Part shown: positions 15,421-59,997 of the stretch, piece by piece
Numbering within the stretch: the stretch's first letter is position 1
Layout of the letters: every line of letters starts with the position of its first letter
Source of the DNA: Octopus vulgaris
Lineage: Eukaryota
Length of the DNA stretch: 64,000 nucleotides
Direction of reading: 5' to 3'
Assembly (NCBI GenBank): GCA_951406725.2
Contig: OX597819.1
Coordinates: forward strand, 25,668,001-25,732,000
The notes under the pieces: generated by a model
Told to the model about the DNA's origin: nothing
Database searches by the model: none
The model's input: only the letters and a program-made list of their open reading frames with translations
Translations under genes and position numbers: made by a program

Positions 15421-15440
15421 ATATATACATATGTATATAT

Positions 15441-16403
15441 ATTACATTTTATAAAGGGCTTAGTAAAATAAATTACTTTGCCACATACTGAACTCATTAG
15501 AAATAGCAGCCAAAAAAAATTTTTTTAGCCATTTCTAATACTTAAAGAAAATTTCTCTCAGATAGTGTTTGCTCAAAATAACCCACGAAGGTATGGGGGT
15601 AAAAACATTAAAAAATCACAAGTGCAAAGATTATTTGAGAACGTACGTTTCTAGATCAACCAAATACAATTCGACATTTCTTTCGTCAGCTCAAAATTTC
15701 TTAATTCGGATTTGTAAACACTGAAAGTAGGAGCATACCCTTTTGGCGACTTTTCACCTCCGAAGATCCGTTCAAACTAACAGTGCCAACAAATTCAAAA
15801 TATGCAAGCGAAGAATTTCTGCCCTCCCCCTTCCACCCACGTGGGCTAAACTAGCAAACACCATGTTTTATCGGTGAAACCCGAAGCATTAAACAGAGAG
15901 AAATGAATTATAATTTCAACAATTGAGGGTAAAATTAATTAATTATTAATCAATTTCACCAAGTATTCAGTATGTAAAGGGACCATTTAAGGCGAATTCA
16001 AAATATTACATTTTATAAAGGGCTTAGTAAAATAAATTACTTTGCCACATACTGAACTCATTAGAAATAGCAGCCCAAAAAAATTTTTTTAGCCATTTCT
16101 AATACTTAAAGAAAATTTCTCTCAGATAGTGTTTGCTCAAAAATACCTTCGTGGGTTATTTTGAGCAAACACTATCTGAGAGAAATTTTCTTTAAGTATT
16201 AGAAATGGGTAAACAAATTTTTTTTGGCTGCTATTTCTAATGAGTTCAGTATGTGGCAAAGTAATTTATTTTACTAAGCCCTTTATAAAATGTAATATTT
16301 TGAATTCGCCTTAAATGGTCCCTTTACATAGTGAATACTTGGTGAAATTGATTAATAATTAATTAATTTTACCCTCAATTGTTGAAATTATAATTCATTT
16401 CTC
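15441..16403 (-). mobile_element. Young non-coding Penelope-like/retrozyme-like insertion (direct plus inverted repeats)
   Basis: 15441-15578 is repeated at 16005-16143 (period 564 bp); 15898-16143 is inverted at ~16159-16403; flanked by (TA)n; contains a hammerhead. Confidence 0.85.
15634..15695 (-). ncRNA. Type I hammerhead ribozyme motif
   Basis: TTTGAG-CTGACGA-(stem II)-GAAA-CGTACG-TT-CTCAAA: intact core, 6-bp stem I, palindromic stem III. Confidence 0.8.
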
Positions 16404-17203: not shown

Positions 17204-17210
17204 TATAAAT

Positions 17211-17446
17211 AGAGTGGTTGTATACAGTCAACATAACGTGACAGTCCCGTAAGGGAATTACACCACCGCAGTTTAGCCCTAGGAAGCATCAAGCTTCCTG
17301 TCGGCTTTGACACATTTCCTGTGTCCTTATATTTGCGAAGGGAGGGGGCGGAAGCACCCCCACGAGCTAGGATTCACATCTCAGGACATGCATATTTCTG
17401 GGTCTTAACCCGTCATCAGCCCAGGATAGTGAGATCTACTGATTGA
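17211..17446 (-). mobile_element. PLE-like pseudo-LTR remnant (host of ORF1-only element 1; continues at 19079-19125 and 19219-19498)
   Basis: AGAGTGGTTGTATAC.GTCAACAT.ACGTGA recurs at 19219-19241 plus 19490-19497; TATATTTGCGAAGG (17328) is inverted at 19112; carries a hammerhead motif. Confidence 0.6.
17374..17432 (-). ncRNA. Type I hammerhead ribozyme motif (imperfect stems)
   Basis: TCACTATCCTGGG-CTGATGA-C-GGGT-TAAG-ACCC-A-GAAA-TATGCATG-TC-CTGAGATGTGA. Confidence 0.6.
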
Positions 17447-19078
17447 AATCTTTATTATAGGCACAACGGCCCGAATGAAGAGGCGACATAACAATACAAC
17501 ACACGACATGGGGTACATATAACAAAAATACAGAAAGGATGATATGAAATGAAATATTAATAATGAATTAAATGAAATGGCTTACGAGCCCCCCAAAGCT
17601 CGCAGTTTCATTTACAATTACAATTGTACTATCTGGGGTGTTCGTCAGTAATGTAAGCGAGTAATTCATCCTGTTCTATAACGCCGGGCAAACTGTCTTA
17701 TCGAACGTAGTGCGCTATGCACACAGCTATATTTGAAAACAAATTTATTAATATATTTACCGTCTCTTTATCCACAATTGCAGCCTTTATTTGGTTATCC
17801 TATATCCTCGGGTTCAATTTCACTCTCGTTAGATTTTTTCATTATCGCTAATTTTTTCTCAATTTTTTATCCTTTTTGTACAACATTACAGCTTTGAGAT
17901 TTTTTCCTTTCGGTCTTCCTCCTTCCTTGCATCTTTTCTAACATTCTTCCACTCTTGTTGACCATTTATTCGTTTCCTCCCACGTTGGACCTTCACTCAC
18001 TTTCGTTGCTGGATCTCTCCCTTCGTGCGTTCGATTCTCTGTCTCGTCGGCAGACTTCTGTTTAGGTCTTTTTCTTTTTTGGTCTTTGCGTGGTGATTCC
18101 AGCCGTGTTTGCTTTCTATCCTCTTTTTCTTCTGTTCTTTCCTTTTCTTTCTCCTTCACCAAACCGTCACCACTTTCCACATTATCTGTTGTCACGATTT
18201 CCTCTTCCGCGTGCAATTCCACATTCTCCTTTTCTAACTCCTCTGTCAAAGTCTCCATTCCTTCCTCCAGTGTTATCGTCTTCTCTTGTATTTCTCTTTG
18301 AGGACACACATCCTTCATGTGCCCTCTGCTCCTACATTTATAACACGCAGTAGGTCTCCACTGCACCACGACTCTCAGTCGTGTCTCATCGGGGAACACC
18401 AACTCCTCCGGGATGTTATACAAATCTGGCATGGTTATGTGGACCGAAACTTGCACCGCATAACCCCACCAGTTTATTTCTTTCGACATTTCCACCTTAA
18501 GAATGTCCACGCTCTCTTTACGGTCGTAGATTATTGCAGCTACTATTGTTTCGGTATCAAGTTCCGGTGAGATTTTGCTTATTCGTATCCTCACTGCTCT
18601 TTTTCTACAATAACTAGGAAGTAAAACTCATTTTCCGATTTTAACACTGTCGTTGCGTTTCTCTTCGCTTCATCTTCATTTTCAAAACGAATGTCTACCC
18701 TAGCGTATTTTCTACCTCTATTGTAGTAGGTAGTTCTTCCCTTAATTTCCTGTAGACATTTCTCAATCTCTTCCACCTCTGCTACTTCTTTTCTCTTTGA
18801 GACCACATTCCAAGTTCTGTATGTTATGACCTTTTTCTCTGCTTCTTTCACTTCGTCTTCAGGTGGTGTAACCCTCAGGCAGTCACCTTCCTTCTTGAAG
18901 CTGTCGTAGTATTTCCTCAAATTTTCCTTCTCGAGCCTGCTGCTCCCGCATAAGTTTGGGCTTGCATACCCAACAAAAAATCCAACAATTCAACACGACG
19001 CAACAGTTCCAACAACAGAAATCAACAAAATCCAACTCACAACCGCAATACAAAATAACCGACACGAACACTTCCAAG
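17447..19078 (-). mobile_element. ORF1-only non-autonomous non-LTR retroelement 1 (L1/Tx1-like ORF1)
   Basis: Flanking repeat TAGTGAGATCTACTGATTGA (17427-17446) / TAGCGAGATCTGCTTATTGA (19079-19098), 17 of 20 identical; AATAAA at the 3' end; single decayed ORF; no RT. Confidence 0.75.
17629..18967 (-). pseudogene. Frameshifted ORF1/gag-like protein with CCHC zinc knuckle
   Basis: MQAQTYAGAA...CLRVTPP...YARVDIRFENEDEAK...LLPSYCRKRAVRIRI...RPTACYKCRSRGHMKDVCP, then a charged linker, ending ...GVIEQDELLAYITDEHPR*. Confidence 0.8.
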
Positions 19079-19241
19079 TAGCGAGATCTGCTTATTGAGA
19101 TGCCTGTCTAGCCTTCGCAAATATATATATTTACAGTGAAATCTATTCACTGGTTACCGTAATTAGAAATATTAAATTTCGAAATGTCTCAAAGAGACAT
19201 GAGCAATGGTGGAGCGATAGAGTGGTTGTATACTGTCAACA

Positions 19242-19471
19242 GGCGGCGACCTGGCAGAAACGTTAGCACGCCGGGCGAAATGCTTAGCGGTATTTCGTCT
19301 GCGTTACGTTGTGAGTTCAAATTCCGCCGAGGTCGACTTTGCCTTTCATCCTTTCGGGGTCGATAAATTAAGTACCAGTTAGGCACTGGGGTCGATGTAA
19401 TCGACTTAATACCTATGTCCGTCCTTGTTTGTCCCCTCTTTGTTTAGCCCCTTGTGGGTAATAAAGAAATA
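19242..19471 (+). mobile_element. SINE family C, full length, 18-bp TSD
   Basis: TSD GGTTGTATACTGTCAACA immediately either side (19224-19241, 19472-19489). Confidence 0.92.
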
Positions 19472-19786
19472 GGTTGTATACTGTCAACATGACGTGAATC
19501 AATTTCCACTGTACCTTTATGCTGCAATCTTTAATTTCGGTATCATTTCACATGCAACATCTTAGTTATGGTTCACATAAAACCTTTTAAAAACTTCCAG
19601 TTTGGAGGAATTAATATCTACAGAATATCTTATATCACACCTCGTCCTTATACTTAATGGAAGATCACTCGAACTTTTCACACCATGAAATCCTCGAACC
19701 AAGTTAATTCTTGTCCTTTCATTTTCCTTTCCACTTCGAGTTTTTGCATGGATTCTTTTTGGGATGCTAAACAGAATATATATATA

Positions 19787-24961: not shown

Positions 24962-25596
24962 GTTCTTTTCTACTCTAGGTACAAGGCCCGAAAATTTGGG
25001 GGAGAGTGCCAGTCGATTAGGTCGATCCTAGTACAGACAAACGGATTAAGTCGATTATATCGACCCCAATGCGTTACTGGTACTTTTTTAATCAACCCTG
25101 AATGGATGAAAGGCAAAGTTGACCTCGGCGGAATTTGAACTCAGAACGTAGAGGCAAACGAAATACCTATTTCTATTTCTTTATTACCCACATGGGGCTA
25201 AACATAGAGGAGACAAACAAGGACAGACAAACGGATTAAGTCGATTACATCGACCCCAGTGCTTAACTGGTACTTAATTTAACGACCCCGAAAGGATAAA
25301 ATGCAAAGTCTACCTCGGCGGAATTTGAACTCAGAACGTAGAGGCAAACGAAATACCTATTTCTATTTCTTTATTACCCAAAAGGGTCTAAACACAGAGA
25401 GGATAAACAAGGACAGACAAACGGATTAAGTCGATTATATCTACCCCAGTGCGTAACTGGTACTTAGTTTATCGCCCCCCAAAGGATGAAATGCAAAGTC
25501 GACCTCGACGGAATTTGAACTCAGAACGTAGCGGCAGACGAAATAGTGCTAAGCTTTTCGCCCGGCGTGCTAACGTATCTGCCAGCTCGCCGCCTT
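24962..25596 (-). mobile_element. Tandem family C SINE array (190-bp period)
   Basis: ACAGACAAACGGATTAAGTCGATT at 25033, 25223 and 25413; only one complete head, at ~25545-25596. Confidence 0.9.
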
Positions 25597-42733: not shown

Positions 42734-44914
42734 TATATATATACACACACACAAAGGAAAGCTTTAGGAACATTTCATGATAGAGCTACAATATTTTATA
42801 CTAAGATTTTTTTAAAATCAATAATTAATATTATAGTTGTAAAAAATCATTTAAAATGAGGACATTAACACACACCTACTGGGAAGAACTTCTTGTGTAA
42901 GCGCTTTCCACTGTTTCCAGTTGTTCAAGCCCATATCATATATCACACACACACACGCACAAACACGCACATGTATATATGTATGTATTTGTGTGTGTGT
43001 ATGTGTGTGTGTGTGTAATTCACTTTTTCTTTAAGGTAGGAACAACATACAAATTATAGCATTCTGTGAGTGATAAATATCATTTAATGTACACTATTAA
43101 AATACAAGCAACTAATATTTTTTTGCCATAGAGAATTATATAACGTACTTTATGTTTGGAAGCAATATTCAAATTTTGGTCCATGGTTTGTTTTATTCGA
43201 AAATAGGACGCTGGTACATGAAAAATCACAAATAAAAATGAAGAATGTTGATACAAAAATTGAAATGAGAAGAGAAAAGGTGAATATAAACAGAAAAGGA
43301 AAGTAACGAAAAAGAAGAAAGTTAGAATTAAACCGTCTTCGACCAGCAGTTGTACAAAGTCTGTAATATGGTTGCTCAATCCGGAGGGGCGGTGTCCAGC
43401 AGTTTGATAAAAGAAATTTGTCCATATGCTATATGTTACTTTAGTAAAGGTGAAAAATCTTAGCACACTGTTACTCAGATTTGTGATTATCCCGAATATA
43501 TGGTCAACAATCACATGAAACTCTGAGCAACAGTTCGTGAAGGTCTTTTTAAAGCTTTAATAAAAAAATTTATTACTCTGCTGTTGATATTCGAGTACAG
43601 TTTTTTACCACCTACCTTGGACCTATGCGCTTCCTTGTGTGTATATGTGTTTGTGTGCGTGCATATATATTATACGTGAATATATATATATATGTGTACG
43701 TGTGTGTGCGTGAGTGTGCGTGTATGTGTGTGCGCGTGTGTGTGCATGTGTGTGCGAGTGTGTGTACATGTGTGTGCGTGTGTGTGTGTGTGCCTATAAT
43801 CACACACATAGAAAGAAAGAGAGAATAATATAAATATATATGAGACACACATACATACATATACATATCGAACACGCAGCAATTCTAACAAACATAAAAA
43901 ATATGAAAATTGTAAAAATTATTCCTCTCAGTAAATTAATATTTTCATACTCAGACATGTCCATGACACAGAAATATGTCAATGTTTGTGATATTGATTT
44001 AAAGGTAGATAAAAGATTCGAGTAAACTTTACATAAATCAGTGCAGGTAAAGTTTGTCATTGCATTAAAGCATAACATCACATAATTTAAGTTGAGTGAC
44101 ATTCACAGAAATCATTTTGTAAGAAGGATTTGTAAAATCCAGTTTGACAGGTCTGCTTAACTCATTCTAAGTGGGTTTAGGAAAATGAAAATAGTTCATA
44201 ATCTTTGTTTTACTTCTTGACAATTTTTAATCATCGTCTCTTTCCGGATTCAAAAATACCTATCTCTGAATATCTACCCTTTCTTTACTATTCCATCATC
44301 CATTTCCGCTGTTTTGTTTCCCTCATTCTCCAGCCATTCTCTGCCTTTTTATAACCCGTAAGAACTTGATGCTTGACGTTTCCAATAAATGCGATAGATT
44401 CATTGAAAGAAAAAAAAATTAAGCATACCGCTATATTTACAGATGAAGTATACGGAGTCCATGCAGTGTTGCTAGTATCTCAAAGACCAAACTAAAGAGG
44501 AGTCGAGCTATTATATACTATTGACTTAGTGCCCAAGCATTTAACACAAAACAGAATAAATAATAAAAAAAAATGACAGGAGATGCAGATGAGGGCAGCT
44601 GCATCGAACGCTCTCATGCACCAAATTGCAATTGCTAAAAAGTGCTCGTGAAGTAAAATCATATAGCAACACCAAATGGTGGTGCTCCAGCATGGCCACA
44701 GCTTGTGAGCTGAAATTAGATAAATGAAAAAATAAAAATATCACATACATAAAAAAGGAAGGATTCATTGAACAAGGTATTTAAACACACACACGCACAC
44801 ACACATAATTGAAAAACAAGAGGACAGTGGAAATTTATTCACATCCAAAACTTTTTTATTAAAAAGATTTCTATATAGGCGCAGGAGTGGCTGTGTGGTA
44901 AGTAGCTTGCTTAC

Positions 44915-46930
44915 CCAGAATGCAACACTAGTTGGTCTGGACTGTTACAGTGAGCAGATGTGAGTTTCGGCTCCGCGAATAGAAAAAAAGAACAAAAAGA
45001 AAAATTGTCAATTATAGCTCGCTATAGCGAGCAAAATACTGGGTTCTCATCATCGCAACGGTGAATTGAGAATTTTTTTGAAAGTTCTTGTGAATTCTAG
45101 TGGACGTATCTTGCCAGAAAAATAAGAATAAGCCATTTGGATTACCTTTTTGGAGTATTATACAAAGGATTCCCTGTCTGTGCTATTTGTAAGGTTTTTC
45201 TTTTGCTTTTCCCTTCTTCTATTTTTTCTTTCTTTCTAAATTTTGGTTCATTCTTTTTATTACTTTAATTTCAGTTTCCTCCCCTCCTCTTTTATTTATT
45301 TTTTTTTTATTCGGTTTAATTTTTTGGCAGACTGTCTTTTTAACTACTTTTGAACTGTTTTTTGACATGGCAGAGAAGGAACTTAAAAAGAAAAAACTCT
45401 GTCTTAGAGTGGGAAATTAACCCGCCTAAGCAGTGGTTAGAAGATATGGAGGAGAAGACGATGGTACTTAGAACGTATTCTAAAGTTCTTATTTCCATCA
45501 CCGTCTTCCAAAAACAAGTCATAAAAAATGAACTTAAAGAACATTTGTCCTCTGTAAAATATATATCCGTGGTGTCAAACATGCAACCGTATGGTTGCTG
45601 TTTGACAACGGGGAAAAGGCTCGCCAGTTTGCGAGTCAGCCTTTAAAAGGCAAGGAAATTTTGCTTCTCCCGTCATATTGTGGAAGAAAATTAATACGAG
45701 CCTGGGTATGTGGGCTTCCCCGGGCACCGAAGCGGATTGGATTGAAGATACCATCCGACGGGGACTGGGGGATGGTGGGCCCAGGCTCTTAAATGTAAGA
45801 GTATTGCCGGCGGTCGATTGGGAAGGGTCAAAATCGCTTTTGACCCTGTGGACCCCATCGGCCATAACAGATCTGGTTTTTCCAGATTTCTTGAAAATGG
45901 CTGGCTGCAGGTATCCGGTGATACTTGAGGGACGTCCCCCAAAGTGTCACACGTGCCTGCAGCCAGGCCACAGTAAAATAACTGCCCCGAGGACCATGGT
46001 AAGGTCCTGGAACAGTCACTAAATGCCACCTCCCCTACTCGGTCAAAGGGAGAGTTGGATGTGGTCTAGAGAGGCTTCAGCCTCCTCAACTCAAAAAGGA
46101 TTAAAAAGGAAGAAGGCGGGCAACAACAGGCTTCGGAAGGCGGGGGAGAGTCTCCGGACAAAGCGGAAGAGCTCCACTCTCCCGAAGCCAGGAAAAAAAA
46201 AAGAAGGAAGAAGAACGGGTCATCTCAGCGGGGAGATGATGTGCCGACTGCATGTCCCGAAGTTGTTCCACCCACGGTGGAGGAAACCACCCCACCCTTA
46301 CAGATGATCAATTAATTATCTTTTTCGACAAGGGCGGGGAGGTGGAAAAATAGTAGAAGAACATAAAGAAACAGTAGATATGCCCTTCACACGGGATCCC
46401 GAATGGCCTCCGCAGATAGCTGTGGAGGTCATAAGGTTTCCCTTGTGGGAAAGGCTTAAAGGATTTGGGGAGGAGTGTCGCATATGGCCGTGTGGCCGTT
46501 ACACGACTTACATGTCCTACATGAGTGAGGCATGGGAAATGGCGGGATACAGGAACTCAAGCGGCATTGAAGATAATGATGAATATATCGATGGATATAT
46601 CGAAGAGTAGGAGGTGAAAGACCCTCGTTACTGGGTTTGAAACCTCATCTTATTGGATTATTTTGTAGTGGTTTATAACCTCAATTTTGTGCTTTAAGAA
46701 AGAAAAAAGAAAACATGTTAAGTAAGAGGTTTTAGTGCCTCCTCCTTGTAAGAGGTTTGAAACCTCATATTGATTTAAAAAAAAAAGAAAATATGTTTTC
46801 GAGAAAAATCCAATCGGCGGGTGTTGGGTTTCGTCTCTCATTTATTCACTATATTTCATTTTCATTCATTAATGTGTTTGTCCAGCCCGCAAAGCTCTTT
46901 GTACTGTCTATATGACAAATTTATGAAATA
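44915..46930 (+). mobile_element. ORF1-only non-autonomous non-LTR retroelement 2
   Basis: Perfect 15-bp TSD AAGTAGCTTGCTTAC (44900-44914, 46931-46945); AATAAA at the 3' junction; one decayed ORF; no RT. Confidence 0.88.
45367..46639 (+). pseudogene. Frameshifted ORF1/gag-like protein with CCHC-type knuckle
   Basis: MAEKELKKKKLCLRV..PPKQWLEDMEEKTMVLRTYS...FDNGEKARQFASQPLKGKEILLLPSYCGRKLIRAWV...LEGRPPKCHTCLQPGHSK...GIEDNDEYIDGYIEE*EVKDPRY. Confidence 0.8.
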
Positions 46931-47707
46931 AAGTAGCTTGCTTACTAACCACATGGTTCCGGGTCCAATCCCACTGCATGGCACCTTGAGCAAATGTCTT
47001 CTATTATAGCCTCGTGAGTGGATTTGGTAGACGGAAACTGAAAGAAGCCGTCGTGTGTGTGCGCGCGTGTGTGTATGTGTGTATATGTTTGTGTGTCTGT
47101 GTTTGTCCACCCAACATCACTTGACAACCGATGCTGGTGTGTTTACGTCCCCGTAACTTAGCAGTTCGGCAAAATAGACCGATAGAATAAGTACTAGGCT
47201 TACAAAGAAGAAGGCTTGGGATCGAATTGCTCGACTAAAGGCGGTGATCCAGCATGGCCTCGGTCAACTGACTGAAAGAAGTAAGAAAGTAGAAGAGTAT
47301 ATATATATAACAATGAGCAACATATTTTTCTGCCGCGGCACATGTTTCTGCACATTGCTCTGTAAGCAATTATGCATTCTGGTCACTGCAGTTTCATTAA
47401 GGGTCCCTCGCGATATTTTCAAAATGAAAAACAAGCTTCCTGCGTTGGTATTCAGTAGAGGATGATAGCGTTTCTTTTTAAACCGAATTTAATTTTGGTC
47501 TTACAATCACCTCTACTAGTATTACAGTTGAATCGTGGTCTTAGAATGTTTATTTATATTAAAATTAATTGTAGCAGTGTTGTTCACGTTTTACTGTATG
47601 GAGTATATTATTTATTCAGAGGTATTTCACTTAATTTGGGTGTATATCCTTAATTAATATTATTGTTATTATTATTATAATTATATTTATTAGTATTATA
47701 TGCTAGA

Positions 47708-56618: not shown

Positions 56619-56623
56619 ATATA

Positions 56624-57599
56624 CGAGAGGAAGTCAAAAATTATCCGCAGCTTCACCATATCATATCTTTATTATTGTCACACTGCCTTCTGCGCACGCG
56701 TGCTTATAGTTAAGTCTATGGTGGACACGTGATCGAAGTTTGAGCCTGATCGCAGTATTTTTCTTTCTGGCTTTACAGTGCAATCATGGCCGCACCATTA
56801 GCAATGTGTGCCACAGAAGAACAAAGAGGACTGATCCAATTCCTCTGGTCGGAATGTAAGTTCGGTTCCCATAATGGGGGGGGGGGGGGGCAAGTCGGCT
56901 TACTGTAGAGCACAAGCGCAAATGTCTTGCGGTCTGCTAACGTTCACTCGATCGCTACAACAATGAGGGCGAGGAGGTTTTGAGCAGAATTGTCACAGGA
57001 GATGAAACTTGGGTCCATCATTACGAGGCTGAATCCAAAAGACAGAGTATGGAATGGAAACATTCTTGCTAGGCAGCGACGAAGAAATTCAAGAATCAGT
57101 CTCCCACTGGAAAAGGTGATGCTAACCCATCCAATTGGGGGACTCAAAAGGGCCTATACTGGAAGACAACCTGGAAACGGGGTGTACGATCAACAGTGCA
57201 AGACAGTGCTTTTCTGGTCAACAAACTGAAGTCACCAATTCGCACCAACGCCGAAGGGTATTGTCGAAGAAAGGTTTGATGTTGCACAAAAACGCACGCC
57301 CCATACGGCCGCCCAGACCACTGAAACCATTTAGCAATTGTGCTAAAAGGCTGCGCTGAATGTCAGCACTTTCCGACCAGAGAAATCGGATCACTGCTCT
57401 TTGTTCTTCTTTGGTGCATATTACTAGTAGAGCGGCCGTGCTTACACTGTCAAGCCAGAGAGAAAAGCGGCGCGATCAGGCTCGAACTTTGACCACCTGA
57501 CCACAATAGTACCAGCTATAAGCACGCATGCGCAGAAGGCAGTGTGTTGATAATGATTATATGTTATGTCGAAAGCGGATAATTTTTGACTTCCCTTGG
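56624..57599 (+). mobile_element. Non-autonomous mariner derivative with ~230-bp inverted arms, copy 1
   Basis: TA|CGAGAGGAAGTCAAAAATTATCCGC...GCGGATAATTTTTGACTTCCCTTGG|TA; internal IVTGDETWVHHY remnant. Confidence 0.9.
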
Positions 57600-57613
57600 T
57601 ATACATACATACC

Positions 57614-57645
<32 letters not shown>

Positions 57646-58183: not shown

Positions 58184-58965
58184 CGAGGGGCGTTCAATAA
58201 GTAATGCCTCTGACCCACTTGCAGTTGTTTGATCTAGTTGAAATTTTTGACTGTGCAATTATTTATATCTCTATAGATTAAGTGGCAAATTACGGCTCTG
58301 AACTAGTTGTGGTTTCTGATTTACAGGTGTTTGAACTGAGTCAAGTGTGAAATGGAGCCTGTTGAGTGTCTAGCAGTGATGCGGTTTTTTGTATTTGAAA
58401 GGTCGCACACCACGGGAGACTTTTGATGAAATAAAAGTAATTCATGTTGATGATGCCCCATCATATGACCTTGTAAAACGCTGGCATCGTGAATTCAAAC
58501 ATGGTCGGAACTTTGTGGAAACAGCTCCCAGATCTGGTCGCCCCCTTCTGCCATTGATGAGGCATCTGTCCGTCAAGTTGAGGCTGCCATTTTGGAAGAT
58601 CGACGCATAACTATTCGCCAAATAGCCCATGAGGTCAAGATTAGTACCGGATCTGTGGAAACTATCATTCATGACCATTTGCATATGCAAAAGGTGTCTG
58701 CCAGATGGATTCCCAGGCTGCTCACACCTTTCCAGAAGCAAGAACGCGTCGATTACGCGAGGATGAATTTGAAGATGTGCCAAGAAGATGAGTCAAAATT
58801 TTTCAAAAGACTGATTACACAGGATGAAACCTAGGTCCATCACTATGATCCAGAGACCAAAACCCAGGCAATGCAGTGGAAGCACCGTGACTCACCTCCT
58901 CCAAAGACGGCATGGGTGTAGCCCTCCGCTGGCAAGGTCATGCTCACATTCTTCTGGGACCAGGA
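58184..58965 (+). mobile_element. Mariner element 5' half (transposase pseudogene, ATG at 58352)
   Basis: TA|CGAGGGGCGTTCAATAAGT TIR; ...PRSGRP...WIPRLL...ITQDET*VHHYDPETK...GKVMLTFFWDQD with frameshifts. Confidence 0.92.
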
Positions 58966-59931
58966 CGAGAGGAAGTCAAAAATTATCCGCAGCTTCACCA
59001 TATCATATCTTTATTATTGTCACACTGCCTTCTGCGCACGCGTGCTTATAGTTAAGTCTATGGTGGACACGTGATCGAAGTTTGAGCCTGATCGCAGCAT
59101 TTTTCTTTCTGGCTTTACAGTGCAATCATGGCCGCACCATTAGCAATGTGTACCACAGAAGAACAAAGAGGACTGATCCAATTCCTCTGGTCGGAATGTA
59201 AGTTCGGCTCCCATAAGTGGGGGGGCCAAGTCGGCTTACTGTAGAGCACAAGCGCAAATGTCTTGCGGTTTGCTAACGTTCACTCGATCGCTACAACAAT
59301 GAGGGCGAGGAGGTTTTGAGCAGAATTGTCACAGGAGATGAAACTTGGGTCCATCATTACGAGGCTGAATCCAAAAGACAGAGTATGGAATGGAAACATT
59401 CTTGCTAGGCAGCGACGAAGAAATTCAAGACTCAGTCTTCCACTGGAAAAGGTGATGCTAACCCATTTTGGGGGACTCAAAAGGGCCTATACTGGAAGAC
59501 AACCTGGAAACGGGGTGTACGATCAACAGTGCAAGACAGTGCTTTTCTGGTCAACAAACTGAAGCTACCAATTCGCACCAACGGCGAAGAGTATTGTCAA
59601 AGAAAGGTTTGATGTTGCACAAAAATGCACGCCCATACGGCCGCCCAGACCACTGAAACCATTTAGCAATTGTGCTAAAAGGCTGCGCTGAATGTCAGCA
59701 CTTTCCGACCAGAGAAATCGGATCACTGCTCTTTGTTCTTCTTTGGCGCACTTTACTAGTAGAGCGGCCATGCTTACACTGTCAAGCCAGAGAGAAAAGC
59801 GGCGTGATCAGGCTCGAACTTTGACCACCTGACCCCAATAGTACCAGCTAAAAGCACGCATGCGCAGAAGGCAGTGTGTTGATAATGATTATATGTTATG
59901 TCGAAAGCGGATAATTTTTGACTTCCCTTGG
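58966..59931 (+). mobile_element. Non-autonomous mariner derivative, copy 2
   Basis: Near-identical to 56624-57599. Confidence 0.9.
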
Positions 59932-59941
59932 TATACATACA

Positions 59942-59997
<56 letters not shown>

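Follow-up and report, generated by a model that had tools for sequence, protein, structure and literature searches.

An ORF1-only element that appears to lie within a retrozyme-like hammerhead repeat of Octopus vulgaris

A 64-kb stretch of Octopus vulgaris DNA (hereafter the window) carries on its minus strand an ORF1-only element of non-LTR type at 17447..19078, which measures 1,632 bp between two copies of a 20-bp direct repeat. The 5' copy of the repeat lies at 19079..19098 and may reach 19101, and the 3' copy, at 17427..17446, takes in the distal portion of the 5' strand of stem I of a hammerhead motif. The initial annotation had described a minus-strand element of about 1.63 kb with a 3'-terminal AATAAA and a 20-bp flanking duplication, and these measurements were reproduced. 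The 3' junction of the element follows the AATAAA (17456-17451) after 4 nt. The two copies of the repeat (19098-19079 and 17446-17427, both minus strand) are identical at 17/20 positions, or at 19/23 when the alignment is extended upstream. Seventeen matches were reached in none of 2000 shuffles, the best of which gave 16; that the 20-mer acts like a target-site duplication is supported. No A-tail was found in the sequence after the AATAAA at the 3' end of the 1,632-bp element.

The coding content of the element is one broken ORF1-like gene of ~446 codons (17629..18967, minus strand), the frame of which was mapped from its relatives and the start codon of which was placed according to the N-termini of those relatives. 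The gene is damaged by at least two frameshifts and by six in-frame stops. RT, endonuclease and GIY-YIG families were matched by none of the 59 short frames around this element and a second ORF1-only element of the window (described below), and the earlier designation as ORF1-only therefore stands. As in HAL1-like elements, ORF1 is present alone and is bounded by a target duplication. An exhaustive search using a 129-residue query gave 167 protein relatives with E values of at most 0.001, the closest family member being 60% identical, and word-index searches with the ORF1-like protein gave none. Of 20 relatives for which the taxon was looked up, 15 are from Octopus and one is from Argonauta, and four had no taxon. 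A crude check of 20 relatives of at least 500 aa found no RT motif (there was one SDH tripeptide), a weak result in that an ORF2 would be a separate frame. Octopods have many members of this family (112 of the 150 clusters listed, at 50% identity), and these are annotated as uncharacterised host genes; in one gene model (relative P0047) the ORF1-like protein is fused to an RGS domain.

The protein layout consists of two predicted alpha/beta (RRM-like) domains, a single CCHC knuckle, a charged linker and a C-terminal part common to the relatives. The domain preceding the knuckle is covered in 112 of the 150 best-listed of the 167 relatives, a count obtained with a profile built partly from those same relatives. 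The knuckle scored just under the Pfam cut-off (E 0.0016-0.0035), and zf-CCHC was found in 20 of the 44 alignment members of the family, none of which had Transposase_22, the type II ORF1 domain. The domain directly before the CCHC was modeled confidently as ferredoxin/RRM-like (pLDDT 90.7), and the model of relative P0005 has a second alpha/beta domain in front of the ferredoxin-like one. RRM chains headed the Foldseek list (best E 0.005). A wide fold search did not tell RRM apart from ACT or S6 folds, its best match being an ACT-type chain (Z 8.2, rmsd 2.6 over 79), and the fold-search matches listed included no L1 ORF1 chain. A PDB sequence search gave knuckle matches only. The atlas neighbors, to be taken only as leads, were unnamed arthropod clusters (0.91-0.92) and a ZCCHC3-type protein (0.89). 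Type I ORF1 is given as RRM plus CCHC in a passage of PMC5203782, and a CCHC knuckle following a predicted RRM-like domain fits this type. HAL1, as described in part of PMC5753468, likewise encodes only ORF1 and is a non-autonomous LINE-like element. In contrast to the octopod insert, with its RRM-like and CCHC domains and no A-tail, HAL1 derives from mammalian L1 and has a type II ORF1. Membership in HAL1 is ruled out by the absence of Transposase_22 and by the non-mammalian RRM-like/CCHC protein.

The second element, a distant homolog that is also ORF1-only and broken, lies on the plus strand at 44915..46930 between duplicates identical at 15/15 positions (44900-44914 and 46931-46945). Homology was detected by profile matches at E 7e-10 and 5e-8, with ~30-45% identity over short stretches. 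This element ends at an AATAAA (46927-46932) flush with its duplication and interrupts, within its head, the commonest SINE of the window, which covers ~8% of the sequence; nine of the ten matched SINE heads are unbroken at that point. By eye the SINE head looks tRNA-derived, and the family could be a tRNA/SINE-targeting one. Our descriptor scan of the window found no hammerhead near the homolog. Elements of this kind make target duplications and end at their own signal without a ribozyme. ORF2 is missing from both full-length copies in the window (2/2), which represent distant families.

The motif adjoining the 3' end of the 1,632-bp element is a type I hammerhead on the same strand as the element (17371..17436, minus), as had been proposed. 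Its core elements occur in the order CUGANGA, GAAA, UH, with CUGAUGA running from 17419 (core 17419-17413), GAAA at 17398-17395 and GUC at 17387-17385. Stem I closes both ends, to about 17371, by 4/5 proximal and seven distal pairs, and the 3' copy of the 20-bp duplication covers the distal portion of its 5' strand, which agrees with the overlap noted earlier. Stem II has 4-5 bp with G-C at the base, an unpaired C before the stem and an unpaired A after it. Helix III has only 2 bp (A-U and U-G) and a 6-nt palindromic loop, the self-duplex of which is at -9.5 kcal/mol. The defects are as follows: stem I has a G-G mismatch, the unpaired A precedes GAAA and helix III includes the U-G pair. At -5.3 kcal/mol, the active-like fold compares with a minimum of -15.8 kcal/mol, values that are only a rough guide in that the core is unpaired in the energy model. 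A descriptor composed after the motif had been seen matched one place in the 64-kb window versus 0.03 per shuffled window (100 shuffles). Rfam gave no hammerhead among the matches listed (150 of 166) nor in two further scans. The ribozyme pattern gave no matches in metagenomes, and a single match in a viral contig (n=1) lacked stem II and was taken as chance. The predicted cut site is 62 nt beyond the 3' end of the element, and thus the position expected from the initial annotation, about 60 nt past the end, was borne out.

The sequences flanking the element (118 bp on the left and 238 bp on the right) are mutually complementary in nested order. Pairing is predicted between the left part of the putative host unit (19099..19216, 118 bp) and the right part (17242..17446), which comprises the hammerhead and a structured tail; both parts are given in minus-strand sense. 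The whole locus is bracketed by an outer 33-bp direct repeat that is 31/33 identical; neither this repeat nor the pairing of the flanks was in the initial annotation. The right copy (17209..17241, minus) may be a terminal redundancy or PLE-type tail, or else an outer target duplication. The left copy (19217..19497, minus) is in two pieces, 19497-19473 and 19224-19217, split by a younger multi-copy SINE-like repeat (19241..19472, minus) having a 16/16 duplication of its own (19488-19473 and 19240-19225). Removal of the insert in silico gave an empty site of 356 nt and 44% GC that folds at -120 kcal/mol (z -6.3), with none of 100 shuffles as low, and in which 32 left-right pairs have a probability greater than 0.5. 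The energy gain on joining the flanks was -23.5, a value matched by none of 200 shuffled left flanks and also reached by two of 120 gapped pairs of flanks drawn at random within the window. The reconstructed unit is noncoding, its one weak Pfam match being off-target and on the opposite strand only. It makes up 0.6% of the window and occurs once, no second copy of either the host unit or the hammerhead being found in the 64 kb. Of 24 public sequencing runs listed, 20 contain some of the stretch but none as much as half (best share 0.36), and no RNA run was listed among them; these shares were not taken as evidence.

Several other repeats were seen. Three head-to-tail copies of the shorter SINE-like repeat that split the outer repeat lie ~190 bp apart at 25030-25595. 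An imperfect inverted repeat with a TA-CAGTG start surrounds the left flank (19513-19131, minus). It prompted us to consider a mariner-type MITE over 19513-19131, which had no further support and was rejected. A 19/22 look-alike of the left end of this inverted repeat is present at 44821-44842 (plus strand), ~70 bp upstream of the 44915-46930 element. Positions 15898-16403 form a 506-bp near-perfect palindrome (arms of 250 nt, 98%) with a third copy of 156 bp at 15439-15594 (99%), and this is either a young foldback element or an assembly artefact. Two 1-kb direct copies (56623-57645 and 58965-59977, 96%), each having inverted ends, flank a Tc1/mariner-like transposase fragment at 58493-58831.

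A solo monomer of retrozyme-like type, bearing a redundant end, is the most likely identity of the host, which is a reconstruction in that no genuine empty copy was encountered. Passages of PMC7229834 describe animal non-LTR retrozymes as non-coding, self-paired units of 150-450 bp with a type I hammerhead and less than 50% GC, those of mussels being ~350-390 bp, and the predicted host unit is alike in hammerhead type, size, GC content and self-pairing. In contrast to those repeats, the host unit is a single monomer, has a 33-bp redundant end and is split by a coding element. Part of bioRxiv 10.64898/2026.07.22.740005 describes solo retrozyme monomers and proposes that retrozymes arose from PLE pseudo-LTRs. 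The literature searched, a scope outside of which supplementary lists fall, gave no octopus retrozyme family. The hammerhead of the host resembles those of PLE pseudo-LTRs in that its helix III is short and palindromic and A9 is followed by an additional base, as described in parts of PMC8557442 and PMC4209133. The 33-bp repeat falls, by length only, within the range of the 30-40 bp tail that PLE insertions often carry according to a passage of PMC8557442; two short motifs of the host unit were absent from the supplement of that paper. Unlike a coding PLE, the host unit has no adjoining RT or GIY-YIG frame. Because no PLE ORF remnant was found beside it (0/59 frames match either family), the host resembles a retrozyme monomer, solo and non-coding, more than the pseudo-LTR of a coding PLE. 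The earlier placement of the insert in a Penelope-type ribozyme repeat is supported.

These data make it very probable that the locus has a nested anatomy, in which 20-bp duplicates enclose the ORF1-only insert and a predicted 356-bp hammerhead repeat surrounds them all. That the landing was incidental or weakly biased, the ribozyme repeat not being a dedicated target, is the reading of this anatomy that we favor, at what we judge to be an even chance. Under the favored reading, a Penelope-dependent retrozyme monomer would have integrated first, with its 33-bp redundant end. An ORF1-only RNA ended at its own AATAAA would then have entered the 5' arm of stem I through target-primed reverse transcription, carried out in trans by the enzymes of an L1/Tx1-type partner. 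A staggered cut would have duplicated 20-23 bp and re-created the 5' arm, and because of this the hammerhead downstream would be whole as a by-product of geometry, the ribozyme being a bystander. The SINE would later have landed in the left 33-bp repeat and the whole locus decayed. The repeats, the hammerhead motif, the broken gene and its octopod relatives are observed directly, and the folds of both the protein and the empty unit are predictions; this order of events, the mechanism and the partner we infer. HAL1 elements rely on L1 by a trans mechanism. The dependence of these ORF1-only elements on L1 is described in part of PMC5753468. The favored reading is supported by the inner and outer repeats, the predicted fold of the empty site, the size and GC content of the host unit, which fit those of mussel retrozymes, the homolog with its perfect duplication and different host, and the octopod relatives and domain layout of the protein. 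Against it stand the missing A-tail, the failure to find a partner enzyme in the 59 frames around both elements and the fold matches of the modeled protein, which appear not specific for RRM. Moreover, the host unit is single and only 0.6% of the window, and thus an unbiased hit is unlikely a priori, and the insertion site is 7 nt upstream of the ribozyme core, a further point against an incidental landing.

The last two points are those expected of a sequence-specific element family, for which a Tx1-type endonuclease acting in trans would cut retrozyme or pseudo-LTR DNA at the 5' arm of stem I. We consider this possible but doubtful. Passages of PMC4494074 report Tx1 families that target Tx1D, Mariner-N4, LTR elements and U2 genes, and the homolog at 44915-46930 likewise lies in a repeat. 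The window elements resemble the Tx1 clade (Tx1L in Tx1D, Tx1-Mar and Keno, in the relevant parts of PMC4494074 and PMC5203782) in their type I-like ORF1 and insertion into repeats, there being two copies with 15-23 bp duplications. Unlike that clade, the window elements have neither RT nor endonuclease, and both their Tx1 membership and any target specificity are putative. In its full form the proposal would have an octopod ORF1-only family target retrozymes at a fixed base of stem I, rebuild the ribozyme and ride the Penelope-dependent circular RNA, and this too we regard as tentative and rather unlikely. The ribozyme would be kept whole by the duplication, and flanking ribozymes in tandem arrays would cut out and circularize the element. 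However, the case is made on one copy only: protein-pattern scans of sequence collections gave 70 and 60 candidate stretches, none of which was a relative, and scans of these collections found no further copies of the element family. The homolog, which belongs to a different family, is in an unrelated SINE that is itself so abundant in the window. A target motif common to both elements was considered and attributed to chance, the likeness of the two sites being nonsignificant (5.5% and 17% of 20,000 random 24-mers score equally).

The outer repeat invites a different order of events, in which the element inserted elsewhere and the 2-kb composite was excised by hammerheads and re-inserted as a cargo-loaded retrozyme by the Penelope machinery, which would make the 33-bp redundant end. 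This seems unlikely to us. The outer repeat, with 2/33 differences, does look younger than the inner duplication with 3/20, and at the divergence of ~0.11 per site estimated from the ORF stops, P is 0.03 for at most two differences in 33. However, the difference between the inner and outer repeats is nonsignificant (Fisher P 0.35, or 0.22 with 4/23), and the same calibration makes the perfect 15-bp duplication of the homolog equally unlikely (P 0.04), for which reason the calibration probably overstates age. Dating by ORF stops was judged unreliable and was set aside. Moreover, no second composite was seen.

The initial annotation also held that the host hammerhead could supply the 3' end of the element, read-through RNA being cut 62 nt past the element and the cut end retrotransposed. 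This we now think highly improbable, although the whole motif lies on the same strand at a short distance. The element joins the host 4 nt after its AATAAA, the 62 nt that a ribozyme-cut template would add are missing from the inserted copy, and the homolog ends alike with no ribozyme. Hammerheads with a 2-bp helix III and palindromic loop are reported in part of PMC4209133 to need a second copy, whereas the window has one motif, which has the G-G mismatch, the unpaired A and the U-G pair noted above and an active-like fold well above the minimum. Just as improbable is a native Penelope-type cassette composed of the ORF and the hammerhead, with the 20-mer as an internal pseudo-LTR remnant; an ORF upstream of a co-oriented hammerhead is indeed described for terminons and Chlamys-2 (which has a zinc-knuckle ORF) in parts of PMC6431247 and PMC8557442, but those carry an RT and a native ORF, whereas here the ORF is within a duplication-flanked insert, the homolog, flanked by a duplication of its own, lacks a ribozyme, the flanks by themselves are predicted to form a complete folded unit, and the locus has neither an RT ORF nor the telomeric repeats that follow the 3' hammerhead in Terminon/Athena cassettes.

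No non-LTR element that targets retrozymes was found in the literature searched, a scope outside of which fall the repeat databases Repbase and Dfam and two supplement sets. On the favored reading of an incidental or weakly biased landing, the locus would add to known kinds two octopod members not described before: a retrozyme-like monomer, and an element whose sole gene is a type I-like ORF1. If targeting were true, the ribozyme repeat would represent a safe-haven target of a new class for non-LTR elements, and the locus would provide a natural test of coding cargo in retrozymes; the ORF1-only element would then be a parasite of a parasite of a parasite.
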